From assembly GCA_023230245.1 (NCBI GenBank), contig JALNXT010000016.1, forward strand, positions 1 to 12,645: a stretch of 12,645 nt of DNA, written 5' to 3'. Under the pieces are notes generated by a model, which had not been told where the DNA came from, did no database searches, and worked only from the letters and a program-made list of their open reading frames with translations. Made by a program: the position numbers and the translations under genes. This document shows positions 2-12,645 of this stretch, in pieces; within the stretch, counting starts at the first letter, position 1, and the number at the start of each line of letters is the position of its first letter. This stretch comes from Candidatus Cloacimonadota bacterium. GTDB taxonomy: Bacteria; Cloacimonadota; Cloacimonadia; Cloacimonadales; Cloacimonadaceae.

Positions 2-316
2 ACCCGGATCTACGGAGCAGACGATGTCGTCTACTCACCGGCAGCTGATGCGGCCATCAAAGATATCGAAGTTCTCGGAAGAAGCGGTCTTCCTATCTGC
101 ATGGCAAAGACCCAGTACTCGCTCTCCGATGATCCTAATAAACTCGGCAGACCGAAGAACTTTGTTATTAACGCAGCAACGGTTCGGCTTTGTAATGGTG
201 CTGGATTTATCGTTGTCGAGACTGGAGACATTATGACGCTCCCGGGACTGCCGGCAGTTCCTGCAGCTTGTTCGATTGACGTAAACAATGATGGATATAT
301 CTCCGGTCTTTTCTAA
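2..316 (+). CDS. fhs: formate--tetrahydrofolate ligase, C-terminal fragment (5' end lies outside the window)
   Basis: Frame-2 translation from position 2 is stop-free to the TAA at 314-316. It reads ...[102 protein letters not shown]. This is the conserved C-terminus of formyl-THF synthetase ([10 protein letters not shown](L/F)SDDP ... GAGF(I/L)V ... TG(D/E)IMTMPGLP ... IDV ... G(L/I)F). The track's 101..316 ORF is the M-initiated tail of the same frame. Confidence 0.85.
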
Positions 317-387: not shown

Positions 388-493
388 GCATTTTCCGGCA
401 TCGAAAGACAGGCAAGATTTGGCTAGTATTGTGCATGTGAGTTTCCATGTTCTGCTGCTTCCATGTAATGTTCAGCTACATGTAATGCCATCT

Positions 494-1681
494 TTACACT
501 TCACCACACTGATTGTTCCATTGTTCGTATCGCTCAAGCATAATTTTTGTCATCGGTGAACGTATCTTCAGAAAAGCCTCACGAAAATCATCATCTACAA
601 GAGGGGTCGTCTGCAAACTTCGGCTTTTAAGCTCTTCAAATGGAAGTTCAGCCATTTTGTAGAGATCCGGATTCACCTTGCGGATCATCGTCCAGATCGC
701 CTGCTGACAGAAGTTAGAAAGATCACGTCCCGAATAGAGCATCTCCACACATTTTTCTGAAATTCTGTCCAGAGAAACCTCTGAGATGTCCATACCCTTT
801 GTCTGGATCTTTATGATCTCTTTACACGCATTCTGATCCGGAAGAGGGACATAGATCCGCCGTGGGAATCGGGATAAAACTGCCGTATCAAGATCCCACG
901 GGGTATTTGTGGCTGCAAGAGTGAGGAGAAGCTGAGCGCTTTTCTTGTCGGAAAGCCCATCCAATTCTGTAAGGAGGCTGGAGAGGACTTTGCGCGTCGC
1001 CTCGTTTGTTTCCCCGTCTCTGGACTGACTGAGAGCATCGAACTCATCAATGAACACGATTGATGGAGAGTGATCTCTTGCTGAGTTGTAGAGACTGGAG
1101 ATGAGTTTTGAAGATTCACCGAAATATTTTGAGAGCACACTCTCCAATTTCACATCAAAGAACGTTGCATGCAGACTTCCTGCAGACGCTGCCGCAAGAA
1201 GAGTTTTACCGGTCCCGGGAGGTCCAAAGAGAAGAATGCCTTTCCAGGGTTTGATGGACTCGGGTTTTTGCAGACCGGCGATCACTACCGTTTCCATCAT
1301 CAGTTTTTTTACAGAATCAAGCCCGCCGATATCGGACCATTTGACATTGGAGGTCGTTATCAGAGAGGCAGCTTTCCGGCTGATTTTATTTTCCTCTTCT
1401 TTCTCGGTTTCATTATGAGAGGTCAGGGATGGTTTTTGTCTTGACCTCGTTTTTCCAGATGAAACTCTCTCCCATTTCTCAGCTCGTTCGAGATATTCTC
1501 TTTTGTTTGAAAGATTCATGTTTGCAAGTTCATGATAGAACTTCGCGATCTCTGCCGCTTTTTTTCTTGCTCCGGGAAGGTCATTTTTCTCAATCAGGGA
1601 TGAATATTCTACGGAGGCTTTTTTCAGGGCATCATACAGAGGGCCGCTTAAATCGATTTTCATCGGAGTTTCCTCCCGCAT
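494..1681 (-). CDS. Vps4/CdvC-like AAA+ ATPase with N-terminal MIT-like helical domain (meiotic clade); probable true start at ATG 1663
   Basis: Walker A ILLFGPPGTGKTLLA. Pore-loop LSKYFGESSKLISSLY (Vps4: VSKWMGESEKLVKQLF). Walker B IVFIDEFDAL. Second region of homology ATNTPWDLDTAVLSRFPRRIYVPLPD (Vps4: [26 protein letters not shown]). Vps4-specific C-terminal helix DFREAFLKIRSPMTKIMLERYEQWNNQCGE (Vps4: [32 protein letters not shown]). N-terminal 3-helix region LYDALKKASVEYSSLIEKNDLPGARKKAAEIAKFYHELANM is MIT-like. GGGAGG (1677-1672, minus strand) sits 8 nt upstream of the second ATG (1663). Confidence 0.9.
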   Translation of the reverse strand: MREETPMKIDLSGPLYDALKKASVEYSSLIEKNDLPGARKKAAEIAKFYHELANMNLSNKREYLERAEKWERVSSGKTRSRQKPSLTSHNETEKEEENKISRKAASLITTSNVKWSDIGGLDSVKKLMMETVVIAGLQKPESIKPWKGILLFGPPGTGKTLLAAASAGSLHATFFDVKLESVLSKYFGESSKLISSLYNSARDHSPSIVFIDEFDALSQSRDGETNEATRKVLSSLLTELDGLSDKKSAQLLLTLAATNTPWDLDTAVLSRFPRRIYVPLPDQNACKEIIKIQTKGMDISEVSLDRISEKCVEMLYSGRDLSNFCQQAIWTMIRKVNPDLYKMAELPFEELKSRSLQTTPLVDDDFREAFLKIRSPMTKIMLERYEQWNNQCGEV

Positions 1682-2517
1682 TTATTACAATAGTGTTGAT
1701 CTTCCTGAGTCGGTGCCCCACAAAAAGAGCATGTTTCCGTCTTACATATACGTGAAAGGATACCTGTTGGTTTTACATCCCCGGGATTTTGCTCTTCGGA
1801 TCTTTGGATGATTTGTTCGTTTGGAACAGTCCATCCAGTACCGGGCTCTCCCATTATTATCGGACGATTCTGTATTGCGTCATCCGTTGCCTGATTTCCT
1901 CCGTTATTTATCGGTCCTTTATTATCACCAAAAATAATCGGTGCATTGTTATCTCCTATAATAACTACACCCCGGTTGGGTGTTCCATTACTTGGATGGG
2001 CCATCTCTATTTTATGTGCCTTTGCGAAAAACAAATCAGCTTCGATCAGAGGGATCGCGTTTCTCCCATATTTGCTTCCGATCGCATTCTTCAGAGCTGT
2101 TTTTAAGGCTTCTTCGGCGAGTACATATTCATCCATCCGGATGAGTGTTCGCCCTTTCCAATGCCAGGCGACAACAGACTGTCTGGTGATCTGAATACTT
2201 TTATCATAATACGCAAGCGCCAGATCGTATTTTTTCAGATAGTGATACGCACGTCCCGCCCCATGATATGCCCATGCGTGATGTCGATCGATTTTTATTG
2301 CATTCTCAAAACAGTTGAGAGCATCAGAATATTTTCCTAAGTCAAGAAGGCATTCGCCTTTCCCGTGCAGAGCGACGTAGGGTCTTTGCTTTCGTACAAT
2401 TGCTTTATCGAAAGCATCGATCGCTTCTTCATATTTTCCCTGATGTTTGCATTTCCAGCCAAGTTGTTCGTAATTGATACCTGACGTGTGGGTCGTACGA
2501 CGATGGTGGGTACTCAT
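1660..2517 (-). CDS. TPR-repeat protein with a central Gly/Asn-rich 'IGDN' repeat segment and a C-terminal zinc ribbon
   Basis: 285 aa. The N-terminal approximately 170 aa contain at least 4 TPR-like 34-mers (W/Y-x-G-x-A ... Y-x-x-A-L-x-x-F/Y-x-K-A-I, e.g. AWAYHGAGRAYHYLKKYDLALAYYDKSIQI). The middle segment is GVVIIGDNNAPIIFGDNKGPINNGGNQ. The C-terminal ribbon is CKTETCSFCGAPTQEDQHYCNKCGRKLR (CxxC-x12-CxxC). The ATG at 2517-2515 overlaps the upstream TGA (TGATG). Its own TGA (1662-1660) overlaps the downstream ATG (ATGA). Confidence 0.8.
   Translation of the reverse strand: MSTHHRRTTHTSGINYEQLGWKCKHQGKYEEAIDAFDKAIVRKQRPYVALHGKGECLLDLGKYSDALNCFENAIKIDRHHAWAYHGAGRAYHYLKKYDLALAYYDKSIQITRQSVVAWHWKGRTLIRMDEYVLAEEALKTALKNAIGSKYGRNAIPLIEADLFFAKAHKIEMAHPSNGTPNRGVVIIGDNNAPIIFGDNKGPINNGGNQATDDAIQNRPIIMGEPGTGWTVPNEQIIQRSEEQNPGDVKPTGILSRICKTETCSFCGAPTQEDQHYCNKCGRKLR
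1672..1677 (-). promoter_or_regulatory. Shine-Dalgarno GGGAGG for the AAA ATPase (second ATG at 1663)
   Basis: Minus strand reads TAATAAATGCGGGAGGAAACTCCGATGA. GGAGG, an 8-nt spacer, then ATG. The same ATG overlaps the upstream TGA stop as ATGA. Confidence 0.5.
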
Positions 2518-3083
2518 CAGTCATCAGCTCCTAAGAAAACCTTCAACTCCTTGTCCATTCTGCCTTGCACAAACGTCACAACATCACCATATCCCCGAAG
2601 TGTGATCAGAAGTTTTGTTTCTCCATCATTATTTGTCAGAGAAACGTCTATCCCCACCTGTCCTTTCTTCGTGTATGCCGTATATGCTTTGATCCCCTGT
2701 TTTGTTCCTTCGAACGAAGCCCCGAGTTTATTCATTATATAATTGAGAAATTTATCGATCGCTGCTGCATCCATAGAGGATGAATATTTCAAATGCATGG
2801 TTTGCTCCGTGATCTCCGGAGAATAAGCATCTCCTGCAAAAACATGAACGGACCCATCTCCAACACTCAAACGGGAATAAAGGTCATCCAAAAACTCATC
2901 AATATCCCCATTATCGAAATGAATAATCGTTCCCTTTGGTTTATGTATATTGGCCTTATCCTTCCAGCGTTCAATAGCGTAGTCTATCCGTTTACGCTCC
3001 GCATCGGACTGATAATCTACCAAAATCAGATAGTCCATATTAAATAAGGGATATGTTTTCAGGCTATATATCTCTATCACCAT
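2517..3083 (-). CDS. hypothetical protein (188 aa); first gene of the minus-strand operon
   Basis: Clean ORF with ATG at 3083-3081 and codon usage like its neighbours. It ends TGA at 2519-2517, overlapping the TPR gene start by 1 nt. The N-terminal segment MDYLILVDYQSDAERKRIDYAIERWKDKANIHKPKGTIIHFDNGDIDEFLDDLYSRLSVGDGSVHVFAG has a beta-alpha-beta-beta-alpha-beta periodicity reminiscent of the Cas2/VapD-like ferredoxin fold. This is inference only; no confident family assignment is possible. Confidence 0.6.
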   Translation of the reverse strand: MVIEIYSLKTYPLFNMDYLILVDYQSDAERKRIDYAIERWKDKANIHKPKGTIIHFDNGDIDEFLDDLYSRLSVGDGSVHVFAGDAYSPEITEQTMHLKYSSSMDAAAIDKFLNYIMNKLGASFEGTKQGIKAYTAYTKKGQVGIDVSLTNNDGETKLLITLRGYGDVVTFVQGRMDKELKVFLGADD

Positions 3084-3176
3084 ATTGGATATTGTATTTT
3101 ATGGTTATTATATTTATTCTCCATTTTGGAGAAATATTTATATCGATGAAAAACCAATGAAATCCTTGTGAGAAAG
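3084..3176. promoter_or_regulatory. AT-rich divergent promoter region with TATA-like boxes for both operons
   Basis: 93-bp gene-free, approximately 80% A+T spacer between divergent starts (3083 minus, 3177 plus). TTATTATATTTATT at 3107-3120 lies about 27-30 nt from the minus ATG (a leaderless mRNA is plausible). ATATTTATATC at 3133-3143 lies about 38 nt before the plus ATG. Confidence 0.35.
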
Positions 3177-3779
3177 ATGGAACTGAAAAATCTGTTCAAA
3201 AAAAGTAATACGATCGACAAACTCAAGATCATCGAACTCCAGGAGGAGGAACTCAGACTCAAAAGCAGGATCAACCGTCTCAGAAAGGAGATCGATGTTA
3301 TTGAAAAAGACAAAAAATGCCTTTTTAATGAGGGTATAGGAGCTGATCTGATCAAGAAAAAGATGATCGCACAGGAGTTAAAACAGCTTGATATGAGCGG
3401 CAAACTCAAAATCAAGAACTTCCTGACCTTACACAAACAGTACATGTTTGTATCCAACCTCATCATCATCAAAAAGTATCAGCGGGATTTGCAGACCACA
3501 CAGGTCTGGAACAAAATCCAGAGCCTTTCTCCTGAGAACTTCGAGTCGTCCCTCATCAAAGTCAACTTGTCCGGAAAAGGTTTTGAGAATGTTCTCGACG
3601 ATCTCAACCGTATTTTTGCACTTGACATCACGGATTCTGATTCCGATGTTGACGAAGCAGAAAAGCAGATGTTTGACATCTGGAACAGTGTTGAAGCGGG
3701 AAATCTTGACGTGAGCGATGCAGAGAATCTTATCTCAATAGAGAAAGAAATTGAAAAGTCCCTGGAGAAAGGTGACTGA
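3177..3779 (+). CDS. coiled-coil protein, ESCRT-III (Snf7/CdvB) / PspA-superfamily-like; the track's 3168 start is a GTG, so the ATG at 3177 is preferred
   Basis: Approximately 200 aa, predicted all-helical, with a basic N-terminus (KKSNTIDKLKIIELQEEELRLKSRINRLRKEIDVIEKDKK) and an acidic C-terminus (DITDSDSDVDEAEKQMFDIWNSVEAGNLDVSDAENLISIEKEIEKSLEKGD). The core EGIGADLIKKKMIAQELKQLDMSGKLKIKNFLTLHKQ parallels the Snf7 helix-2/3 pattern (KKGNKDAAKILAKQLVRLRKQ...YASKAQLESVSMQL). The C-terminal amphipathic helix ENLISIEKEIEKSL resembles a MIM1 motif. Genomic linkage to a Vps4-like ATPase supports the call. Confidence 0.6.
   Translation: MELKNLFKKSNTIDKLKIIELQEEELRLKSRINRLRKEIDVIEKDKKCLFNEGIGADLIKKKMIAQELKQLDMSGKLKIKNFLTLHKQYMFVSNLIIIKKYQRDLQTTQVWNKIQSLSPENFESSLIKVNLSGKGFENVLDDLNRIFALDITDSDSDVDEAEKQMFDIWNSVEAGNLDVSDAENLISIEKEIEKSLEKGD
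3771..3775 (+). promoter_or_regulatory. Shine-Dalgarno GGTGA for the small membrane protein gene
   Basis: GGTGA-ctgaa-ATG(3781). The SD sits inside the last codons of the upstream gene (stop TGA 3777-3779). The same GGTGA-type SD precedes the ATGs at 4178 and 8593. Confidence 0.5.
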
Positions 3780-3780
3780 A

Positions 3781-4170
3781 ATGTTTGAGATGACTGATGT
3801 TTCAATAGATTGGATACTTTCATTAATATTATTTCTCATCATTATTTTTGGAATCATCGCCATATGTGCTGTATTCAAGGAAAAAAACAAAAAACGTGAG
3901 ACTGAGAAAAGAAACCTACTTTCGGCAATGTTTGCGGCGACGTTCACCATGGAAGAAGATGAAACCGAAGAGGAATATTCCAAGAGAATTCACACAGAAG
4001 TCGACATTTACCTCAGGGAACAGGAAGACAAAATCTGGAACGAGGCAAAAGAGGAATATAGAAACCTGTTCGGGAAGAAAAAAACGTGCGATTCATGCAG
4101 TGATGAAACTGAGGCTAAAATCCCCTGCGTAACTTGCGTGAACGCTTGCGAGGAGAGGATTACAACATAG
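3781..4170 (+). CDS. small membrane protein with N-terminal TM helix and C-terminal Cys4-type zinc ribbon (YdjG/YdjH-like accessory?)
   Basis: The track's ORF starts at TTG 3751 and overlaps the upstream gene. The ATG at 3781 (MFEMTDVSIDW) has an SD and begins 1 nt after the upstream stop. TM helix ILSLILFLIIIFGIIAICAVF is followed by a charged stretch KEKNKKRETEKR (N-out/C-in). The acidic middle is EEDETEEEY. The C-terminus is CDSCSDETEAKIPCVTCVNAC (CxxC-x9-CxxCxxxC). Confidence 0.7.
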   Translation: MFEMTDVSIDWILSLILFLIIIFGIIAICAVFKEKNKKRETEKRNLLSAMFAATFTMEEDETEEEYSKRIHTEVDIYLREQEDKIWNEAKEEYRNLFGKKKTCDSCSDETEAKIPCVTCVNACEERITT

Positions 4171-4177
4171 GTGAACA

Positions 4178-4723
4178 ATGTCAATCATAAATAGCAAAAA
4201 AAGCCTTGAAAAAATAAGTTTAGGGGATTTGCGCATGGCAGAGGCAGAGCTCATTTTTTCTGTTTCAACTATTCATGAAAAAATAATGGAAATTGACAAA
4301 AAGATCGATGCAGAATTGATGACCTGCACAAAAGTTCTCTCTGAGTTTGAAACGGTTTCGGCAGCGAAAAAGATTTCAAGTCTGATATGTGAGAGAAAAG
4401 AACTCATTAAAAGGCTTCAAATTGCAGAAAAGAAGAAATTAGCGGTTGCGCGCCTTATTTGGATCAAGGATAATATAACTATTATTTCAGCACGAAAATC
4501 AGATATTTTCAGAAATCTTGACCTTGATGAAATAACTGCAAAACGTGATGAGATCGAAATTAAAACCGAAATTGAAGAGATGAAGCTTGATAAAATTCTT
4601 GATGAATCTGGGGCTTCATCAGGTGAATACAAAAAGATTCTTGAAATTGTAAAATCGGTAATTCTAGACGATGAAAGCGTGAAAATAGCCAAAGTTGAGA
4701 TAGAATGTCTGAGTTTGAAGTAA
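4178..4723 (+). CDS. coiled-coil protein (181 aa), possible second ESCRT-III/PspA-like paralog
   Basis: AGGTGA at 4169-4174 lies 3 nt before the ATG. The sequence is highly helical and charged with heptad periodicity (LSEFETVSAAKKISSLICERKELIKRLQIAEKKKLAVARL...EIEIKTEIEEMKLDKILDES) and has an acidic C-terminal tail. There is no enzyme motif. Similarity to ESCRT-III is weaker than for 3177-3779. Confidence 0.7.
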   Translation: MSIINSKKSLEKISLGDLRMAEAELIFSVSTIHEKIMEIDKKIDAELMTCTKVLSEFETVSAAKKISSLICERKELIKRLQIAEKKKLAVARLIWIKDNITIISARKSDIFRNLDLDEITAKRDEIEIKTEIEEMKLDKILDESGASSGEYKKILEIVKSVILDDESVKIAKVEIECLSLK

Positions 4724-4775: not shown

Positions 4776-6407
4776 ATGTTTAACAGGAAAATAAAATGTA
4801 ATTTTTGCGGTGCTGAAAATCCTGCGGGGGGCCATTTCTGTATCATATGCGGAAAATCAATCGAGGGAAAATCAAACAGCACATGTCCCATATGTGGAGC
4901 TGCTATTGTTGCAGGGGCGTCATTTTGTGGTAAATGTGGTGCAAAACTCTTGGACTCGCCGCAAACAACCCGAACTGCCGACACCTCCAAAGAGCTTGGT
5001 AAAAATCGTCAGTGGATGAGAATGCCGGGAGATCTTGCCCAGAGATTTGAACTCTCGGATATCAAAGGATTTTTTGCAAAACAGGTAACCGTTGAACAGG
5101 GAACAAAAGCCATTCTTCTTCAAGGAGGGATTTACAAAGGAACACTTCCTGCAGGCGTATACAATCTTGGAAACATCTTTGATACCATCGGTCAGTTGAG
5201 ACTTGATGAGCGAACAACGGTTATTCTTGTTGATGCCGGAGAGATTCCTCTTACCTTCATGATTCCAAAAGGTGAGTTACGTTCAAAGAATGCCATATCT
5301 GTCGAAGCTGCAGGTATATTGACGGCGCAGATCAAAGATCCGGTCGCTTTTCTTGAAAACTATCTGAAACGTGAACAGCACGTGAGTCTTATGGACATTG
5401 AGAACTGCATTCATGCAGAACTCAAAAATATTGCCCAGAATAAAATATCCCAATATAATATAGAAGAACTGTACGGAAATGCAGTTCTCAGTCAGGAATT
5501 GAGTAATGAATTCAAGAAAAATCTGAATGCAAACTTTGGTAATAAGGGTATAGAGATTTCTCATCTGAACTGTGTGGGCTTTGATGAAGGAGCCTGGAAA
5601 GAGGTTCTTGGAGCACGCGAAAGTATGCAGATCGAAGTGGGCAAAGCCAAAGCAGAGTATGAAAAGAAAGCTTACTTGCGTGAAGCAGGAACGAAAGATG
5701 CTGTTGGTCAGATTAATGCGGACCATACCATACAATCACTTCATGAGGGGCTTGAAAATCAAAGAATCAATACTGCCTTAAATCACGACCTTGCCCGTGA
5801 TTCTGCAAAACATGACCATGAACTGGAAAAAGACAGCAAGGAGATCAAGCAGCATCTGGAATTCAAAAGACAGAACAAGGCGATCAAACGGGAGGATGAG
5901 AGACAAAAGATCGCAAATCTCTCAGAAGCACCGATCGAAGTTCTCATTTCTCTGGTCGATGATCAGACGGTCGGCGCCCTTGTTCAACTTGAACTTGCTA
6001 AGAGAGCAAACAGCCTGACGCCGGAACAAATCCTTGCGATGAATGCAAAAGACCCGAAGGCAGCTGCCGAGGCATTGGCCGCTCGTGCCAAACTCGAATC
6101 TGTTGAGCAATTGAACGAACTTAGAATCAAGGATCAACAGACCTTCAACGTAACGATGCAGAGTCAATACAAGGAGAATGCCGAGCAGATGAAGGAGGTA
6201 ATGAATTCCGCACTGAATGCTATGGGAAATACGGCGACCGCCCGCTCTACTGCGCAAAATCCAGGGACCACCGTCGTTTCAGGAGGAATGGGGATGCCAG
6301 TTGTCATGAGTAATAATCCTCAATCGAAGAATATATGTCCACATTGTGGTGAAGTCGTGTCGCAAGAGGATTGGTTCTGTCCAAGTTGTAGGAAAAAGTT
6401 GTATTAA
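4776..6407 (+). CDS. double zinc ribbon - SPFH/Band-7 (flotillin/YqiK- or Band_7_1-like) - long coiled coil - C-terminal zinc ribbon protein
   Basis: N-terminus: CNFCGAENPAGGHFCIICG + CPICGAAIVAGASFCGKCG (two CxxC-x9/10-CxxC ribbons). Residues approximately 95-270: FFAKQVTVEQGTKAILLQGGIYKGTLPAGVYNL...TTVILVDAGEIPLTF...ISVEAAGILTAQIKDPVAFLENYL...ELYGNAVLSQELSNEFKKNL...GIEISHLNCVGFD. This matches the SPFH pattern (beta-rich N-part, xDPxxF, GIEIxxVxI at the end). Residues 270-480: Ala/Glu/Lys-rich coiled coil (flotillin-like EA-rich). C-terminus: CPHCGEVVSQEDWFCPSC. Confidence 0.85.
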   Translation: MFNRKIKCNFCGAENPAGGHFCIICGKSIEGKSNSTCPICGAAIVAGASFCGKCGAKLLDSPQTTRTADTSKELGKNRQWMRMPGDLAQRFELSDIKGFFAKQVTVEQGTKAILLQGGIYKGTLPAGVYNLGNIFDTIGQLRLDERTTVILVDAGEIPLTFMIPKGELRSKNAISVEAAGILTAQIKDPVAFLENYLKREQHVSLMDIENCIHAELKNIAQNKISQYNIEELYGNAVLSQELSNEFKKNLNANFGNKGIEISHLNCVGFDEGAWKEVLGARESMQIEVGKAKAEYEKKAYLREAGTKDAVGQINADHTIQSLHEGLENQRINTALNHDLARDSAKHDHELEKDSKEIKQHLEFKRQNKAIKREDERQKIANLSEAPIEVLISLVDDQTVGALVQLELAKRANSLTPEQILAMNAKDPKAAAEALAARAKLESVEQLNELRIKDQQTFNVTMQSQYKENAEQMKEVMNSALNAMGNTATARSTAQNPGTTVVSGGMGMPVVMSNNPQSKNICPHCGEVVSQEDWFCPSCRKKLY

Positions 6408-6433: not shown

Positions 6434-8530
6434 ATGTCTGTAGAAAAAGAAGAGTGTCCAAATTGTGGGGGCAGTGTTGATATAAATCCAATCTCGGGGG
6501 AGGGGACCTGTCCTAGATGTAGAACCAAAGTAAGACAAACTAAAAAATATATTGACAGTGATAAATGGGGTCGTATTGTCATTGACAAAACGGGTGATTT
6601 TCAGAATTCTCTGAGCCGAATAAAAAAAGAAATTCTCTTAGGCAATTATTCCAATGCATATATAGCTTGCCTTGATGCTCTAAAAATAAATGCAAATAAT
6701 TATGAACTCGATTTTTACTATGCATTTTCTGATTATCTTGGAAATGGAAATGAGATGCATTTTCTCCAGTTCTTAATCCAGAAGGAAGTGCAGGTTGATG
6801 TTGAAAAACTTGATGAAATAATGAATATAATGCTAGGTGTCAAGTATACTACTAGCATTCTTACACAGATTGATCTATATATAAATAAACTAGAAATACC
6901 TGAAGCAATTAAAAAGAAATATTTGACTAAACTTACTCTTCTTGCATTTGATCAATACGATTTTCCACGAAAAGTGCATCTAGCATTGTCAGAACAGAAT
7001 AGCAGAAATCAGGCTGAAATGTTTACTTTGATTGACAATCAAATTTGTGACTATCAAGAATATCAATCGATCATACCTCTAATTGAGAAAGCAATTAAGA
7101 ATAATATTATCTTCTCAGAATCATTATCGATTTTTTTTGAGGGAGCAATTCGACAACTTCTATTAGTCAAAATATCTTATGAAGATTATGTAGATTATCA
7201 TTATATAGAGAAAAGTTTAAAAAAACTGAAAGATTTATATTCACTTAGCGATCTGGATAGTAGTTTCAGCAACTATAACATTAAACAAATGTTTGAAAAC
7301 GCCGACTCTACACTTTTGAGTATTAGAGACTCTATTGAAATACACATTCTGGAGCGAAAACGGCTAAGAACGAAAGAACTTCGCAGGCAAAGAGGAAAAA
7401 GAATGGGCAAAGCTCTGAAAATTCTCATCATTTTGGCTGTTCTGGGTGTGGTAATTTTCGCGGGATATAATGTTATTAGTAATTTCATTAATAATCAACA
7501 AAACACAGAAATAACATATCCACTTGGTTCTATTGAAAATCCTTATATTATTACAACACCTGATGAACTACAAAATATGAGAAGTTCAGCTAGTTATGTT
7601 CTTGGTAATGATATTGATTTGAATGGTTATTCTTGGACACCCCTTTGTAACGAAAAGTATCCATTTAAAGGACACTTGGATGGAAATGGATATACAATCT
7701 ATAATTTAAAGGTTTCAAATTATGAAAGTAACGGCCTATTTGCATATGTAGGATCTGGAGCAACTCTTACCAATCTTATTTTTGAAAAGGCAGAAATTAC
7801 TGGTGCACCGGGCATTAGTAAATATGTTGCAGTCATTGCTGGCTGTTCAAAAGGAGAGATTTCTAATTGTAAAGTATTTAATTCTTATGTATCCGGTGGA
7901 GGAAGTCTCTTTGGTGGACTTGTAGGGTTAAATGATGTGGGAACAATTCGTTCATGCTCATTTAACGGCAATGTAATCAATGAAGCTGTTTTTATTAAAA
8001 ATGATAATTTCAATTCTGCAACTGGAGGTATTTTAGGTTCAAATACATATGGAGAAATTTCAAACTGCAAGGCATCAGGCACAATAACTGGACTTGGTTA
8101 TGTGGGAGGTATTGTTGGAGTGGTTACATCTGCTAAGTCAATAATATCAGAATGTTCATTTTCTGGAATTGTAAATGCAGAATTCAGTCCCTACCCGTAT
8201 CCAGTAATGACAAGGATAGCATATACAGCTCCAGCAGGAGGTGCCAAATCAGATGCGGGAGGAATTGCTGGTTGCATTTCTGGTGGTGGAGTGGTTACTG
8301 ACTGTACTTCTTCTGGAACCATTTCAAGCAATAAAAATAAGTTTAGTATTATGACCGGAAATGCAGGTGGGATTCTTGGTTCAATTTCGTATAGTTCAAG
8401 TGGTACGGTGAGAAAGTGTACATCTTCCACACAGGTATACAAATCATCTTATTCTAATGCAGATGGTATTTGTCCTGACACTGATGCTACACTTTCTGGA
8501 AATACTTTTACTGGAGCCATAGTACAATGA
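6434..8530 (+). CDS. membrane-anchored surface protein: N-terminal cytoplasmic zinc ribbon + helical domain, one TM helix, extracellular GLUG-motif repeat (beta-helix-like) domain
   Basis: CPNCGGSVDINPISGEGTCPRC at residues 8-29. Approximately 290 aa helical, Asn/Ile/Lys/Tyr-rich region. The basic stretch RKRLRTKELRRQRGKRMGK immediately precedes the TM helix ALKILIILAVLGVVIFAGYNVI (N-in). After it come repeated G-x-(I/L/V)-x-G units with interspersed N/S-C residues: LFGGLVGLNDVGTIRSCSF, TGGILGSNTYGEISNCKASG, GYVGGIVGVV, AGGIAGCISGGGVVTDCTSSG, AGGILGSISYSSSGTVRKCTSS. These are typical of the GLUG motif family. Confidence 0.85.
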   Translation: MSVEKEECPNCGGSVDINPISGEGTCPRCRTKVRQTKKYIDSDKWGRIVIDKTGDFQNSLSRIKKEILLGNYSNAYIACLDALKINANNYELDFYYAFSDYLGNGNEMHFLQFLIQKEVQVDVEKLDEIMNIMLGVKYTTSILTQIDLYINKLEIPEAIKKKYLTKLTLLAFDQYDFPRKVHLALSEQNSRNQAEMFTLIDNQICDYQEYQSIIPLIEKAIKNNIIFSESLSIFFEGAIRQLLLVKISYEDYVDYHYIEKSLKKLKDLYSLSDLDSSFSNYNIKQMFENADSTLLSIRDSIEIHILERKRLRTKELRRQRGKRMGKALKILIILAVLGVVIFAGYNVISNFINNQQNTEITYPLGSIENPYIITTPDELQNMRSSASYVLGNDIDLNGYSWTPLCNEKYPFKGHLDGNGYTIYNLKVSNYESNGLFAYVGSGATLTNLIFEKAEITGAPGISKYVAVIAGCSKGEISNCKVFNSYVSGGGSLFGGLVGLNDVGTIRSCSFNGNVINEAVFIKNDNFNSATGGILGSNTYGEISNCKASGTITGLGYVGGIVGVVTSAKSIISECSFSGIVNAEFSPYPYPVMTRIAYTAPAGGAKSDAGGIAGCISGGGVVTDCTSSGTISSNKNKFSIMTGNAGGILGSISYSSSGTVRKCTSSTQVYKSSYSNADGICPDTDATLSGNTFTGAIVQ

Positions 8531-8592
8531 GGGTTTATTACAACACTCATTTCATTGTATTTAGAATCAACGAAAATTATTGGTGAATAAAT

Positions 8593-9540
8593 ATGATAAT
8601 AAGCAAAATAATAAAATTTGAAGGACCAACAGATGTCTTCATCTGGAAACATCCCATCGTAATATTGACGCACCAGATGCAATTATATGTAGAGAACAAT
8701 TATTATGCAATTCTCTTTCGCGATGGGGAAATTCTAGATATTTTCACATCAGGACATTATACTCTAAATGCATCTACTACTCCATTGTTAAAAAAGGTTC
8801 TTCCACACCAATTAAGCAGAAATGTATCTTTTCAGTGTGATGTATATTTTGTAAACTGTTTTACATCATTTAATTTCTTGTGGGGCACTCCCTCTCCAAT
8901 TCCAATGCAAGACCCACTATATGGTTTATTTGTTAATGTTCGAGCAAATGGACAGATGAAAATCAAAGTTTCAGATTCAGCAAAACTTGTAAAAAGACTT
9001 GCAGGTGATGTGTCTTCATTTATTCACGATAAATTACAGGATTATCTGCGAGATATGATAATGATGAAAATTGTAGTAGGAATATCTCAGATAATGATAA
9101 ATGATAATGTCAGTTTCCTAGATGTTTCTGCTAGATTATTTGATATATCAGAGGCAATTCACATAAGTATTGCACGAGATTTATATGAATGTGGCCTTTC
9201 AGCGGTATATTTTAATGTAAATTCAATTACTATCCCTAGTTCTGACTATGCACAATTGAAAGAAGCAAAAGAGACAGCTGTGTCTATAAAAACAATTGCT
9301 GATGCTGAAGCATATAGTATCATTGCTAAAGGAGAGGCAGAAAAAACAGTTCGACCATCAGTAATTAATATTGGAAATGTAGCTTCTGGTGGACAGGTAG
9401 TAGTGGGAGATAACTATGGGAATATTGTTGGGGCAGACGGGATAATAAATAGACCGTCAAACTCAGTCATTCAAGGTGATGAACGGAAAAAAGCTAAGAT
9501 GAATGAAGGTAGTCTGGATTCTGATTTATTTGAGGAGTGA
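8593..9540 (+). CDS. SPFH-superfamily protein of the Band_7_1 (B. subtilis YdjI-like) type with a Gly/Asn-rich C-terminal 'IGDN' repeat tail
   Basis: GGTGA at 8582-8586 lies 6 nt before the ATG. The N-terminus IIKFEGPTDVFIWKHP...LYVENNYYAILFRDGEILDIFTSGHYTLNASTTPLL matches the YdjI-family signature (W(K/R)HP ... L-V-x-E-x-Q-x-A-V/I-x-F-x-DG ... G-x-Y-x-L-x-T-x-N-x-P-L). Downstream matches: VYFVNCFTSFNFLWGTPSPIPMQDP, VRANGQMKIKVSD, YECGLSAVYFNVNSITIPSSDYAQL. The C-terminal tail is VINIGNVASGGQVVVGDNYGNIVGADGIINRPSNSVIQGDE. Confidence 0.85.
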   Translation: MIISKIIKFEGPTDVFIWKHPIVILTHQMQLYVENNYYAILFRDGEILDIFTSGHYTLNASTTPLLKKVLPHQLSRNVSFQCDVYFVNCFTSFNFLWGTPSPIPMQDPLYGLFVNVRANGQMKIKVSDSAKLVKRLAGDVSSFIHDKLQDYLRDMIMMKIVVGISQIMINDNVSFLDVSARLFDISEAIHISIARDLYECGLSAVYFNVNSITIPSSDYAQLKEAKETAVSIKTIADAEAYSIIAKGEAEKTVRPSVINIGNVASGGQVVVGDNYGNIVGADGIINRPSNSVIQGDERKKAKMNEGSLDSDLFEE

Positions 9541-10096
9541 ATTGGGTTAATTCGCCGTCTAAATTATAATGTTGGGTCGTTATATTTAATTCATTTGACA
9601 TTTATTTGCCACCTAACGTTTACAGTTACAAAGATCTGCCTTCATTCGGACATGCACTTCCGAAATAACCTGGGCGTTGAATTGTCGTGTATTTTGTCAG
9701 AACATCCAAGTAAATGCCAAAAGGAGAGACGGTCATAGATTTTCACTTTCAACGTTCAGATCTGGGAGGTTATTCTAGACTTCCAATAGCTGGATCTTGA
9801 AAATGGGTATTACATTTACATTGGGATGGTCATCCATGCCGGCTTAATTTGGATACATGGATTCATCAAGAAAAGGATGAAGGACATCCCAATCAAGTGT
9901 ATTACCAACGTCGGAGAGGCAATCGCCAAGTTTTTCATAATGTTCTTGATAAGCATGGTTGAGACCAAAGCTGCTGAAAGTCTCCATACTACTCAACGTA
10001 CGAAAAGAAAGTACTTTCTGTCGGAAAAATGGGTTGTTAGAAATTCTCAAATAGTTTTTTTCTGTCTTTATTAATATATTCTAAACAGTATTTACG

Positions 10097-11224
10097 CTAT
10101 GAGATGGAAATTAGAATGGATACTAAAGTAGTAATAATTGTTAGAGCAATTATCAACGACCAGACGTTTACTGCACTGTCGGACAATATATCCGTCATTT
10201 GACCATCGAAATATACCATATCCCTATTTATATAGTTTAATTTATTATGCTTGATGGATTCAGATATGAAACCCAACTCATTAATCATTTTTAAATTATA
10301 AATTCCAATACTTTCATAGAATGTGATTTTACGCTTTTTATTTACTCTTGAGAAAATAATAGCAGTGGCAATAATATCTGCGATAAGATAAATCGGGAAT
10401 AAACCAAGTAACATAGGATTTTGTGAAATGATTGCCATGATCAGAATCATTATAAAAATAATGATATGCACTATACTTTTCTTGGGAAGACAAGAAATAG
10501 AATAGTCATAATGTTTCTTTATGAGATAGTAGTTTGCTTTTCCATAATGCCACACCCGTTTTCTCATTTGAGTTCGGTGAGACCATGTATCTTTAGCATG
10601 ATAAACAATTCCTGTTTTTGAACATCTAATTTTATATCCTTTTTTAGTGAGGCGCAGCCCTAAGTCTACATCTTCTCCACCCGGTTTATTTGGAAAATCT
10701 GTATCAAATTCGCCAATTTCGGTAAAGAGATTTTTTCTTATAGAGAAATTAGCAGTTGGTGTCCAAGGGACTTCATATAGCCACCCAGGTAATTTAAAAC
10801 ATACAACAAATGGTGATTGGTCAACAACATGCCAATATCGATTTTCTTCCCCAGTAAATATTAATAAGCCGGCAACACCCCCAATTGAATCATCAGAATA
10901 CATTTTATAATGTTCTGTTAGCAGATTTGGCGAAGCAACACAATCTGAATCCAGATATAATATTATGTCATACTGGGCTTTTGAAGACCCATAATTTCGT
11001 TTGCCTGATACAGAAGGCGTAAAAAAATACTTTTGTGCACTGTATTTTTCACATAAAGAATCAATAATTTTTGTTTCATCTTCAGAACTATCATCAATTA
11101 TCAGTACTTCAGAGGAACCTGTAAAATTATTTCTTGCAATTAATACACTTTGTAATAACTTCTCCAAGTGTAATAACCTTCCTTTGGTTGCAATAACAAT
11201 ACTTATTCCATTTAGTTTTTTCAT
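10097..11224 (-). CDS. glycosyltransferase family 2 (GT-A fold) with C-terminal multi-TM region
   Basis: ISIVIATKGRLLHLEKLLQSVL...EVLIIDDSSED...YLDSDCV (DxD-type), with GGVAGLL and acceptor-side ED motifs. The C-terminal approximately 130 aa are hydrophobic (IVHIIIFIMILIMAIISQNPMLLGLFPIYLIADIIATAIIF ... VWSLIIALTIITTLVSILISIS). The ATG at 11224 overlaps the upstream TGA (ATGA). Confidence 0.85.
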   Translation of the reverse strand: MKKLNGISIVIATKGRLLHLEKLLQSVLIARNNFTGSSEVLIIDDSSEDETKIIDSLCEKYSAQKYFFTPSVSGKRNYGSSKAQYDIILYLDSDCVASPNLLTEHYKMYSDDSIGGVAGLLIFTGEENRYWHVVDQSPFVVCFKLPGWLYEVPWTPTANFSIRKNLFTEIGEFDTDFPNKPGGEDVDLGLRLTKKGYKIRCSKTGIVYHAKDTWSHRTQMRKRVWHYGKANYYLIKKHYDYSISCLPKKSIVHIIIFIMILIMAIISQNPMLLGLFPIYLIADIIATAIIFSRVNKKRKITFYESIGIYNLKMINELGFISESIKHNKLNYINRDMVYFDGQMTDILSDSAVNVWSLIIALTIITTLVSILISIS

Positions 11225-12360
11225 ATAACGACACCCTTTGTAAACAATACGAGAATAAAACTACACGTATATATCAAAACAAAAGATAATAGGAGCAATC
11301 CCATCCTTTTTGCATCATTTTTTAATTGAGCTTGAATTTGAAATGAATTAAACAACATACCTTTTAAAAAGACATCAAGATGCTTTTTCTGGATTGAAGT
11401 TTTTACTCTGAAAAATTCATATAATCCTGCGATACATTTTGAAAGCAGGTAATAAATTGGGTTTTTGAATTTATTCGATATACCATCAATCACATAATTT
11501 ACAATATTAATGCTCAAGCACCAAACTATTAATCCAATTAAAAAAATCCATGATTTCGTTATAAAACATGTAATTCCCCCAATTATTAGAGCTAGACAAA
11601 ATATAACATAATTCTTTGGTATTATCAACTTATATAATTCAGGATGTATTGTACAAATCATTACTTCCATGGATCCCCACCGTTTAGCTCGATCAATTAT
11701 TGCTGAAAAATTATTCCAAGTATTTCGTGAGTGATATGTTACTGCATCCGGAGCAGAACCAATCATATAACCTGCTTTTGTAACTCGGTATGATAGTTCT
11801 AAATCATCCCCGCCAAGTTTATATGGTAAATTTTCTTCAAACATACCAATTTCCTCCAGCACATTTTTCTTAAATGATACATTATTTCCGATGGTCCAGG
11901 AATGAAATGGATATTTTTTTGCAAAGGAAAACGCATCAACAAATGGGGTGATAGATAGAATTTTCCACCAGAAAGTCATTGGCCCTTCAAAAACAGTCAA
12001 GCCAAGAATCCCCCCAATCTTAAATTGGAGAGGCATATTTTGATATGAGGATGCGTAATTATCCAATAATCCCTCTTTTACTCTCACATCAGAGTCAATA
12101 AAAATGATATAGGGATATTTTGCACTTTTTATGCCCAAATTCCTCTTTTGACGAACACTGTCTGTACCATGGATGTATGTTGCATCATATTTTTTACATG
12201 CAGATAGTATCGTTTCTTTTTCTCTACCCTCACTACTATCAATGATTAGAACTTCAGTTGCTCCAAAACTATATGTTTTTCGCTCATCATACAGACTTTC
12301 GAGAAGCCTATCAACTAATTCTGATCGATTCCATGTTGGAATAATAATTGAAAAGTCCAT
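11221..12360 (-). CDS. glycosyltransferase family 2 (paralog of the downstream gene) with C-terminal multi-TM region
   Basis: FSIIIPTWNRSELVDRLLESL...EVLIIDSSEGRE...IFIDSDV...GGILGL, plus C-terminal TM helices (NYVIFCLALIIGGITCFITKSWIFLIGLIVWCLSINIV ... LLLLSFVLIYTCSFILVLF). The track's start at 12372 is a GTG. The ATG at 12360 (MDFSIIIPTWN) is preferred. Confidence 0.85.
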   Translation of the reverse strand: MDFSIIIPTWNRSELVDRLLESLYDERKTYSFGATEVLIIDSSEGREKETILSACKKYDATYIHGTDSVRQKRNLGIKSAKYPYIIFIDSDVRVKEGLLDNYASSYQNMPLQFKIGGILGLTVFEGPMTFWWKILSITPFVDAFSFAKKYPFHSWTIGNNVSFKKNVLEEIGMFEENLPYKLGGDDLELSYRVTKAGYMIGSAPDAVTYHSRNTWNNFSAIIDRAKRWGSMEVMICTIHPELYKLIIPKNYVIFCLALIIGGITCFITKSWIFLIGLIVWCLSINIVNYVIDGISNKFKNPIYYLLSKCIAGLYEFFRVKTSIQKKHLDVFLKGMLFNSFQIQAQLKNDAKRMGLLLLSFVLIYTCSFILVLFTKGVVI

Positions 12361-12610
12361 TTTTTCAGACACATTTAATCCAACTGACCGTTTAAAAGCA
12401 TTGTGACTTCATTACATAAGTACCAACACCCTTCACACTGACAACACAACATTTTTTCTCGACATCTATTCATTTTATCTCCAGTCCAAATTTCTTTTAA
12501 ACTTCTTTCTCCCAATGTTCGGTAGTACCTCAATTTTTCTGTAAATTTTTTGAGGCTCGTATTCTTAGCAGTAATTACGATGTTAGACTACAAAAATATA
12601 CTGTTGTGAA

Positions 12611-12645
12611 CCGGGGGGCGGAGGGGCGACTCCGGCGCGGAGCCC
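12611..12645. other. GC-rich structured element truncated by the window edge (possible 5' or 3' end of a stable RNA gene)
   Basis: 35 nt at more than 80% G+C (CCGGGGGGCGGAGGGGCGACTCCGGCGCGGAGCCC) follow about 230 bp of 25-30% G+C non-coding DNA. It contains the hairpin CTCCG-GCG-CGGAG. It is too short and too truncated to classify. It does not fit a tRNA T-arm. Confidence 0.2.

Follow-up and report, generated by a model that had tools for sequence, protein, structure and literature searches.

A Vps4-like ATPase operon with overlapping genes in a Methanocorpusculum-type archaeal ESCRT-like locus

Genes of the Operon

The 12,645-nucleotide (nt) stretch analyzed here, hereafter the window (contig JALNXT010000016.1, assembly GCA_023230245.1, filed under Candidatus Cloacimonadota bacterium), carries on its minus strand a chain of three genes: g188 (2517–3038), a gene for a protein of 285 amino acids (aa) combining tetratricopeptide repeats (TPR) with a zinc ribbon (TPR-Znr, 1660–2517), and the gene of a 389-aa Vps4-like AAA ATPase (494–1663). 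An earlier note on this DNA had drawn attention to the overlapping stop and start codons that chain these genes and had read from them translational coupling, a fixed stoichiometry, and a role of the TPR protein as dedicated adaptor of the ATPase. Read on the minus strand, every coordinate given there for TGATG, ATGA, GGGAGG, and a tandem heptamer is correct. [quoted passage not shown]

The ATPase matches the Pfam AAA model at 2e-36 and is Vps4-like, as the earlier note had proposed. In the AlphaFold2 (AF2) model, an N-terminal bundle is followed by a disordered linker, the AAA core (~1348–644), and a C-terminal helix (residues 373–386, 547–506). The single AAA domain belongs to the meiotic clade: the top Foldseek matches are katanin, Vps4, spastin, and FIGL1, over the C-terminal region katanin outscores the best VAT domain (70.9 versus 46.6 bits), and the motif SRFPRRIY lacks the two-residue insertion of the classic clade (Cdc48/VAT). 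The Vps4_C helix (PF09336) is recognized in 35 of 36 orthologues, with a best E value of 8e-11 and a value of 0.02 for the window protein. These orthologues were collected with the full-length query, a deep search with the N-terminal domain alone having returned seven fragments. The Vps4 of Methanocorpusculum parvum XII listed in arCOG01307 is encoded on the contig of locus L002, where the ATPase is 80% identical to that of the window. The N-terminal bundle is predicted to comprise three helices (residues 7–68, 1645–1460; predicted local distance difference test score 81–88), which suggests a MIT-like domain, and the sequence EYLERAEKW in helix 3 presumably resembles the Vps4 MIT motif. At 187 bits, against a cut-off of 650, the protein is not an equivalog of CdvC in the NCBIfam model NF041006.

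The product of the first gene, left as hypothetical in the earlier note, is a member of the published ESCRT-associated family arCOG08177, an assignment that rests on the folds of this family, a sequence signature, and the listing of Makarova et al. (2024). The N-terminal domain adopts a Cas2-like ferredoxin fold, and the C-terminal domain a TBP/helix-grip fold that is similar to the adaptin appendage platform and to KA1. The family has been described as a euryarchaeal ESCRT component composed of an inactivated Cas2 domain and a TBP/DUF3568 domain (PMC10936438). A block ERKRI(D/E)Y is common to g188 and Fig. S3 of the same paper, and g188 is 48% identical to its homologue in L020, a genome whose protein PKL62238 is listed as arCOG08177. 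Structure and literature provided the identification: the Pfam Cas2 and DUF3568 models gave no match to g188 at E ≤ 0.1, and Pfam, NCBIfam, and PADLOC assigned no family to g188 or to CC200 and CC181, two products of the divergent operon described below. The sole match of g188 in a sequence search of the PDB, a designed protein, was rejected as spurious.

The middle protein was delineated by the Pfam models TPR_1 (1e-22) and Zn_Ribbon_1 (8e-5) and by an alignment of its family. Three to four TPR repeats (residues ~15–146, window 2475–2080) are followed by a low-complexity linker with the conserved motif IIxGDNxAP(I/V)NxGGxQxxDDxIxNRP (~1971–1852) and a C-terminal CxxC...CxxC zinc ribbon (~1743–1663). 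The linker motif is present in all members of the TPR-Znr family and is duplicated once in the window (VIIGDN and IIFGDN). A similar stretch, VVVGDN...IINRP, is found in the C-terminal tail of a Band_7_1 protein of the window (~9397–9414, plus strand), and both may represent a shared short docking motif. Terminal CxxC...CxxC zinc ribbons recur in at least four proteins of these loci, namely TPR-Znr (1663–1743), both ends of the SPFH protein (4776–4950 and 6330–6407), the N terminus of the GLUG-repeat protein (6434–6550), and, in relatives, a Sel1-repeat-zinc-ribbon (Sel1-Znr) protein (L002: 9354–11231); this recurrence suggests that the ribbons share a docking or membrane-proximal role. The TPR protein has diverged faster than its neighbors (46–71% identity versus 72–92%). 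TPR-Znr genes are confined to the Methanocorpusculum-type lineage, and the exact TPR-Znr protein was not found in public assemblies.

Overlapping Junctions and Embedded Shine-Dalgarno Sequences

At junction 1 (2514–2532), the ATG of the TPR gene (2517–2515) shares one nucleotide with the g188 stop codon TGA (2519–2517), so that the g188 gene ends ...GGA GCT GAT GAC TGA and TGATG is read at 2519–2515. At junction 2 (1660–1677), the TPR gene ends ...CTC CGA TGA, and the ATPase ATG (1663–1661) overlaps its stop codon (1662–1660) by 4 nt, forming ATGA at 1663–1660. Both starts are preceded by a Shine-Dalgarno (SD) sequence embedded in the upstream gene. The GGGAGG at 1677–1672, located 8 nt before ATG 1663, was correctly identified in the earlier note within the last codons of the TPR gene; it pairs with the anti-SD sequence at −10.0 kcal/mol and coincides with the Cys-Gly-Arg-Lys codons of the zinc ribbon. 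A second embedded SD, overlooked at the time, is AGGAGCUGAU (2532–2523) ahead of the TPR start, with a pairing energy of −10.6 kcal/mol. Compared with the SD consensus AGGAGGUGAU, it is an extended SD. It is formed by codons of the conserved g188 C terminus, ...FLG(G).

The perfect tandem heptamer at junction 1, TCATCAG twice from position 2514 on the plus strand (CTGATGA twice, 2527–2514, on the minus strand), is present as described. Its first copy is the tail of AGGAGCUGAU and its second copy is the stop/start itself. Four perfect 7-mer tandems occur in the window versus 1.26 expected, a count of at least four being reached by 8% of random windows; L001 and L002 contain a shifted repeat (GATGAGT twice), and more distant loci contain no heptamer repeat. 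A functional or slippage element was therefore rejected, and the heptamer has no demonstrable role.

The stop/start overlaps are ordinary and represent textbook operon architecture. Among unidirectional genes of 1,695 species, −4 and −1 nt are the most frequent distances by a wide margin (PMC10666635), and ~15% of co-directional gene pairs overlap (PMC6728339). That such an overlap is ordinary is also shown by a third ATGA in the same window, which joins two family-2 glycosyltransferase genes unrelated to the operon (11221–11224, minus strand). An Rfam search of the window gave no match; no exact copy of the methanogen box-A consensus TTTAWATA lies within the operon, which is weak negative evidence only.

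Gene Starts and Promoter Module

The earlier note had left the ATPase start between ATG 1663 and a further in-frame ATG at 1681. Sequence comparison places it at 1663, since the N-terminal MKIDLS/M(T/N)VDLS is kept in all relatives, ATG 1681 is missing in L001 and L002 (AACTGC instead), the gene calls of the six closest orthologues in the database give 389 aa, and anti-SD pairing falls from −10.0 kcal/mol before 1663 to the background level of −5.2 before 1681.

The start of g188 is probably Met16, ATG 3038, giving 173 aa, rather than ATG 3083, which would give 188 aa. Most of 93 homologues are 171–173 aa long and begin at Met16, residues 1–12 of the 188-aa form are disordered in the predicted model, and ATG 3083 is replaced by GTG in L001, L002, and L005. 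In addition, a conserved TATA-like ATATATAG at 3064–3071 lies ~29 nt 5′ of ATG 3038, within the putative extension. Neither start has an SD (−0.2 kcal/mol at 3083 or 3038), which fits a leaderless first cistron.

The doubtful 15-codon extension (3039–3083) holds the downstream copy of a promoter module, with a degenerate palindrome and ATATATAG. The upstream module (3103–3132) has the perfect palindrome TCTCC-N5-GGAGA (3118–3132), followed by the TATA-like ATAAATATAATAACC (3103–3117). In the clade of the window, two copies of the complete module (palindrome, TATA, ~25 nt, ATG) stand in tandem, offset by 45 nt, over the region 3039–3134; the upstream copy ends at 3083 and retains the perfect palindrome. 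Position 3083 may be an alternative start created by the duplicated module, and this duplication softens the preference for Met16. The perfect palindrome is present in one copy in the window, and once per locus, always just 5′ of the g188 gene, in L002, L003, L006, L031, and L040–L043; it is kept even in a Thermoplasmatales metagenome-assembled genome with only 38% protein identity. The palindrome is a candidate operator at which a dimeric regulator would control the divergent ESCRT operons.

Conservation and Variation of the Locus

The comparison set comprises 39 genome loci with g188 homologues (designated by L-numbers), and gene presence and absence refer to the DNA fetched for each locus. 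Homologues of CC200, of the ATPase, or of both are encoded in 30 of the 39. Two main layouts are observed. In type A, two Snf7-like genes (Snf7 and Snf7′) and an SPFH gene, in this order, diverge from g188, one or more TPR-type genes, and the ATPase gene; this arrangement is found in the window, Methanocorpusculum, Methanogenium, Methanocalculus, and M. marisnigri. In type B, the ATPase gene follows the two Snf7-like genes, and g188 on the opposite strand is followed by arCOG09748; this arrangement is found in Methanosarcina, other Methanoculleus, and others.

The gene following g188 falls into three classes: arCOG09748-like (~500–720 aa), TPR+HEAT/Arm (620–900 aa), and TPR-Znr (244–285 aa, sometimes in two or more copies). 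In type A, a TPR-type gene always stands between g188 and the ATPase gene, where no arCOG09748 homologue is found, and tblastn over the fetched DNA detects no arCOG09748 match in the window or in L001–L006, so that a copy, if present, would lie elsewhere in the genome. The TPR-Znr family is homologous to the N terminus of the TPR+HEAT proteins (hhalign probability 99%, E value 7.5e-18), and both families are unrelated to arCOG09748; the middle gene as a diverged arCOG09748 was rejected at a profile–profile probability of 0.2%. In the TPR+HEAT type A loci, the SPFH gene of the divergent operon is followed by a gene whose product is homologous to just the N-terminal 200–260 residues of arCOG09748 (L007: 2265–3032, L009: 3616–4383, L011: 3999–4604, and L016: 3779–4381, all on the minus strand). 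The TPR+HEAT lineage may therefore not simply have lost arCOG09748, but split or relocated it.

The junctions were compared in 12 type A operons. Junction 1, between g188 and the middle gene, has spacings of −1 nt (seven operons), −4 nt (four), and +3 nt (one), so that the overlap is kept in 11 of the 12. Junction 2, between the middle gene and the ATPase gene, measures −4 nt in four operons and −11, −1, 0, +5, or +8 nt in the rest (+8 in four of them), always within −11 to +8 nt; the ATGA is found only in close relatives, L001, L002, L005, and L041 being identical to the window here, including the embedded GGGAGG. The TPR overlap with g188 is thus better conserved than that with the ATPase gene. 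Across the family at large, the gene that follows g188 mostly starts within −8 to +4 nt. Both overlaps of the window also recur in pipeline gene calls on independent metagenome contigs (L041: 6892–7455, 7455–8285, and 8282–9466).

The SD sequences are conserved as well. Mean pairing energies are −10.2 kcal/mol at junction 1 (28 loci) and −9.3 kcal/mol at junction 2 (12 loci) versus a coding background of −4.85 (p ~1e-12 and ~1e-6, respectively). Such pairing is absent in the two haloarchaeal loci.

There is considerable variability in the middle gene itself. In type A, its size ranges from 244 to 898 aa, and one to two TPR genes, nominally more in L001, separate g188 from the ATPase gene. Adjacency of TPR and ATPase genes as a universal feature was rejected: type B loci have their TPR genes ~280–300 nt downstream or on the opposite strand, and these genomes encode many TPR proteins. 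In L002, L005, and L041, Sel1-Znr solenoid genes (537–705 aa) adjoin the ATPase gene on its other side, after its 3′ end. At this position in the window, directly after the ATPase stop, taaAGATGGCATT (423–491, minus strand) starts like a Sel1-Znr gene and runs for 22 codons only, a remnant from which the gene appears to have been deleted.

In L001 (1074–5542), a segment comprising the 3′ end of the zinc ribbon and the 5′ end of the ATPase gene is present in three copies (stops at 2420, 3484, and 4359), together with a chimeric open reading frame that joins ATPase residues 1–59 to g188 residues 113–172 and with additional L005-type TPR genes. This arrangement reflects either duplication of a cassette by unequal recombination of two operon alleles or a chimera from co-assembly of two strains.

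Recombination Mosaic across the TPR and ATPase Genes

Sliding-window identity delimits a recombinant segment at 1340–1980 (minus strand) that spans the linker and zinc ribbon of the TPR protein and the N-terminal domain and linker of the ATPase. This segment is 82–92% identical at the nucleotide level to L005 and 47–75% to L002; the TPR domain (~1980–2550) shows the opposite pattern and resembles L002 and L041. The breakpoints lie near 1900–1980 and 1300–1340. At the protein level, TPR residues 1–175 share 80% identity with L002 and 23% with L005, residues 176–285 are 49% and 66% identical, and ATPase residues 1–70 are 57% and 87% identical; the AAA core is close to both (92% to L002 and 90% to L005). 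By these sequence identities, the tail of the TPR protein and the ATPase's N-terminal domain, its presumed recognition domain, are inherited as one divergent module. Such co-inheritance is the pattern expected of co-evolving partners, and adjacent DNA alone would give the same pattern.

Divergent Operon and Remainder of the Window

On the plus strand, divergent from g188, CC200 (3177–3779) and CC181 (4178–4723) are Snf7/ESCRT-III-like, as judged from their correspondence to arCOG09749 and arCOG09747, respectively. This correspondence was established by gene order and by accession runs in the lists of PMC10936438, where the M. bavaricum arCOG09747 protein sits three accession numbers from its arCOG08177. 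CC200 is 52–92% identical across loci and always divergent from g188; CC181 is a second paralogue, homologous over its full length to the CC200 family (hhalign 98.9%, E value 2.9e-17). The only PDB match of the CC200 profile is the CdvB/Vps2-like archaeal ESCRT-III structure 9s9j (E value 0.15).

Between both Snf7-like genes lies a gene for a small single-pass membrane protein of 129 aa (3781–4170). It is absent from the closest relatives, L040–L043, in which the Snf7-like genes (201 aa and 165/187 aa) are adjacent, and it is therefore a recent insertion. The operon continues with a 543-aa protein (4776–6407; Pfam Band_7 2e-11, DZR 7e-12) composed of a zinc ribbon, an SPFH/Band_7 domain, a coiled coil, and a second zinc ribbon. 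It is kept in type A loci (30–84% identical in L002–L005, L007–L009, L011, and L016), and proteins of this SPFH-coiled-coil-zinc-ribbon architecture have been described in "Meth_adaptin" ESCRT loci (PMC10936438). The Snf7-like pair and the SPFH protein, divergent from g188, identify the locus as a euryarchaeal ESCRT-like system and not an isolated ATPase operon.

Past ~6500, GC content falls from ~0.44–0.47 to 0.28–0.40. The region 6434–12645 encodes a protein with a zinc ribbon, a transmembrane segment, and GLUG repeats, the Band_7_1 SPFH protein, and the two glycosyltransferases; relatives carry in its place, after the SPFH gene, a 78-aa gene and an SDF transporter. This low-GC part may be an acquired cell-surface island that abuts the ESCRT locus. 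At the other end of the window, the 3′ end of a formate-tetrahydrofolate ligase gene (2–316, plus strand) is convergent with the ATPase operon.

Comparison with Known Systems

Main-clade euryarchaeal ESCRT systems comprise Vps4 (arCOG01307), Snf7-family proteins (arCOG09747 and arCOG09749), arCOG08177, and arCOG09748, a protein with a C-terminal winged helix that all of these systems are said to encode (Makarova et al. 2024, mBio, PMC10936438). Similar to these systems, the window locus encodes a Vps4-like ATPase, two Snf7-like paralogues, and arCOG08177, and it has the same divergent arrangement of arCOG08177 and arCOG09749; the tables of that paper include M. parvum and M. bavaricum proteins encoded in such loci. 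The main differences are that the window contains an unrelated TPR-Znr gene in the slot of the missing arCOG09748 (TPR+HEAT in sister genera), that its ATPase gene follows the g188/TPR pair rather than the Snf7 genes, and that an SPFH-zinc-ribbon gene follows the Snf7 genes. The Meth_adaptin variant combines Vps4, adaptin-appendage-like proteins, and an SPFH-coiled-coil-zinc-ribbon protein (PMC10936438). The window shares with it a coiled-coil SPFH protein bearing zinc ribbons beside ESCRT-III-like and Vps4-like proteins, several zinc-ribbon proteins, and, in g188, a TBP/appendage-like domain; unlike Meth_adaptin, it shows in a Pfam scan no full appendage protein with Ig-like plus TBP domains, no GOLD domain, and no ProX. 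This comparison with the Main and Meth_adaptin groups is one of gene content.

The crenarchaeal Cdv system (CdvA/CdvB/CdvC) likewise links a Vps4-type ATPase to ESCRT-III-like proteins, and CdvB is the only PDB sequence matched by the CC200 profile. In contrast, the window ATPase lies far below the CdvC cut-off, and CdvA is missing. The host lineage, which we take to be one of FtsZ-using methanogens, is for that reason not expected to use the system in division.

A further parallel is the Bacillus subtilis pspA-ydjGHI operon, which encodes PspA, a zinc-ribbon protein, a membrane protein, and the Band_7_1 SPFH protein YdjI. The plus strand of the window similarly encodes putative ESCRT-III-superfamily, small membrane, zinc-ribbon, and SPFH proteins, including a Band_7_1 member. 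In contrast, a Vps4-like ATPase, arCOG08177, and a TPR component are all lacking from the bacterial system. The link between YdjI and PspA is cited in PMC10936438.

Discussion

The favored explanation, held with moderate confidence, is that the three genes form one operon in a Methanocorpusculum-type (Methanomicrobiales) ESCRT-like locus, that their translation is coupled, and that TPR-Znr is an exchangeable adaptor that bridges g188 and the ATPase. What it says of coupling, complex formation, and binding partners is inferred from the sequence features, folds, families, synteny, conserved junctions and SDs, and mosaic described above. As first cistron, with no SD and a TATA box at leaderless spacing, g188 would be translated from a leaderless transcript; TPR-Znr and the ATPase, which start at −1 and −4 overlaps behind strong SDs embedded in the preceding gene, would be reached by a ribosome that terminates on one gene and reinitiates on the next. 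Termination–reinitiation at ATGA and TGATG overlaps has been demonstrated in Haloferax volcanii as well as Escherichia coli (Huber et al. 2019, 2023; PMC6728339, PMC10666635). The overlap lengths are equal to those found here, and the SD likewise lies inside the 3′ end of the upstream gene, so that coupling is a reasonable inference. The three-gene chain of the earlier note therefore stands as a tightly packed operon in which conserved junctions and SDs make coupling plausible, and the overlaps themselves are nothing unusual.

In the favored model, an ATPase hexamer would engage Snf7-like polymers through its MIT-like N-terminal domain and disassemble them, the Snf7-like proteins being encoded divergently together with an SPFH scaffold. 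g188 would contribute a dimeric Cas2-like core and an adaptin-appendage-like platform. TPR-Znr would occupy the place of arCOG09748, directly after arCOG08177, as an exchangeable adaptor whose tail may contact the ATPase's N-terminal domain. A fixed stoichiometry does not follow from the overlaps, as the number of TPR genes varies and only ~45% of closely spaced H. volcanii pairs encode subunits of one complex (PMC10666635). The dedicated adaptor of the ATPase can be kept as a working hypothesis: a TPR-type gene always precedes the ATPase gene in type A and its tail is co-inherited with the N-terminal domain, but this applies to a single locus type, and the TPR gene is fast-evolving, overlaps g188 more faithfully, and sits in the arCOG09748 slot.

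Several observations weigh against the favored explanation. Neither the Pfam MIT model, searched with the window protein and its orthologues, nor a PDB sequence search detects a MIT domain in the ATPase, and the Pfam Snf7 model matches neither CC200 nor CC181. Variable TPR gene number and size argue against a fixed-stoichiometry subunit, and type B loci have an ATPase without a tightly linked TPR gene. The co-inheritance of tail and N-terminal domain may merely reflect physical adjacency of the DNA. Oligo-T tracts can serve as archaeal termination signals, and five T5 runs on the sense strand within g188 and the TPR gene (1722–1726, 1930–1934, 2027–2031, 2838–2842, and 2890–2894) could be partial terminators. 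Finally, no transcript, proteomic, interaction, or other experimental data on these euryarchaeal systems were found in the literature.

The main rival, possible although the less probable reading, holds that TPR-Znr functionally replaces arCOG09748 as a partner of g188 and is not an ATPase adaptor, the ATPase gene having moved behind the pair in one lineage. TPR-Znr may indeed be primarily the partner of g188, given the better-conserved overlap between these two genes and the arCOG09748 slot. The gene right after arCOG08177 is tightly packed whether it encodes arCOG09748, TPR+HEAT, or TPR-Znr, Methanocorpusculum-type loci have no arCOG09748 homologue in the DNA fetched, and the type B ATPase gene, after the Snf7-like genes, is far from the partner of g188. 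A partnership with g188 alone is opposed by the module formed by the zinc-ribbon tail and the ATPase N-terminal domain, by the ATGA and GGGAGG junction that is identical in four close relatives, and by the Sel1-Znr solenoid genes that also adjoin the ATPase gene on its other side.

Somewhat unlikely is a reading in which the overlaps arose incidentally as the genome became compact and starts and stops drifted, the two internal genes are translated independently, each with an SD of its own, and no conclusion on stoichiometry or complex formation can be drawn. It gains from the frequency of −4 and −1 nt spacings everywhere, including the glycosyltransferase pair of the window, and from the range of −11 to +8 nt at junction 2. 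Strong SDs would equally allow de novo initiation, and ~55% of closely spaced H. volcanii pairs encode no complex subunits (PMC10666635). However, the overlap at junction 1 is kept in 11 of 12 operons even though the gene behind it ranges in size between 244 and 898 aa, and such overlaps are tightly coupled by experiment in an archaeon (PMC6728339, PMC10666635).

A bolder proposal, for which the odds are long, extends the favored explanation. The solenoid protein (TPR-Znr, or TPR+HEAT in sister genera) and arCOG08177 would jointly constitute a split, adaptin-like adaptor for cargo or membrane, the linker motif and zinc-ribbon tail would dock on the MIT-like domain of the ATPase, and recombination would swap the TPR head apart from the tail-plus-MIT module, retargeting the machine. 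If true, this would represent an archaeal MIT ligand other than ESCRT-III and a modular exchange of specificity in an ESCRT system.

An anti-virus defense module, in which an IetA-like AAA ATPase would act together with a protein derived from Cas2 and a hypervariable TPR sensor, is very improbable: PADLOC IetA models match the ATPase at 2e-35, g188 has a Cas2-like domain, and the TPR gene is fast-evolving, mosaic, and variable in copy number, but the NCBIfam IteA score of 114 bits against a cut-off of 510 indicates generic AAA similarity, there is no IetS-like protease or other defense gene, g188, the TPR protein, and the neighbors have no meaningful PADLOC match, the conserved partners are Snf7-like and SPFH proteins, and the Cas2-like domain is described as inactivated (PMC10936438).

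For this locus, the analysis gives the "hypothetical" protein a family name, revises its start to a probable 3038, and places the ATPase start at 1663. More broadly, euryarchaeal ESCRT-like systems bear on the pre-eukaryotic origin of ESCRT and of adaptin-like sorting machinery. A variant without the supposedly universal arCOG09748 provides a testable hypothesis on what recruits or directs archaeal Vps4, and the locus is present in cultured Methanocorpusculum strains.

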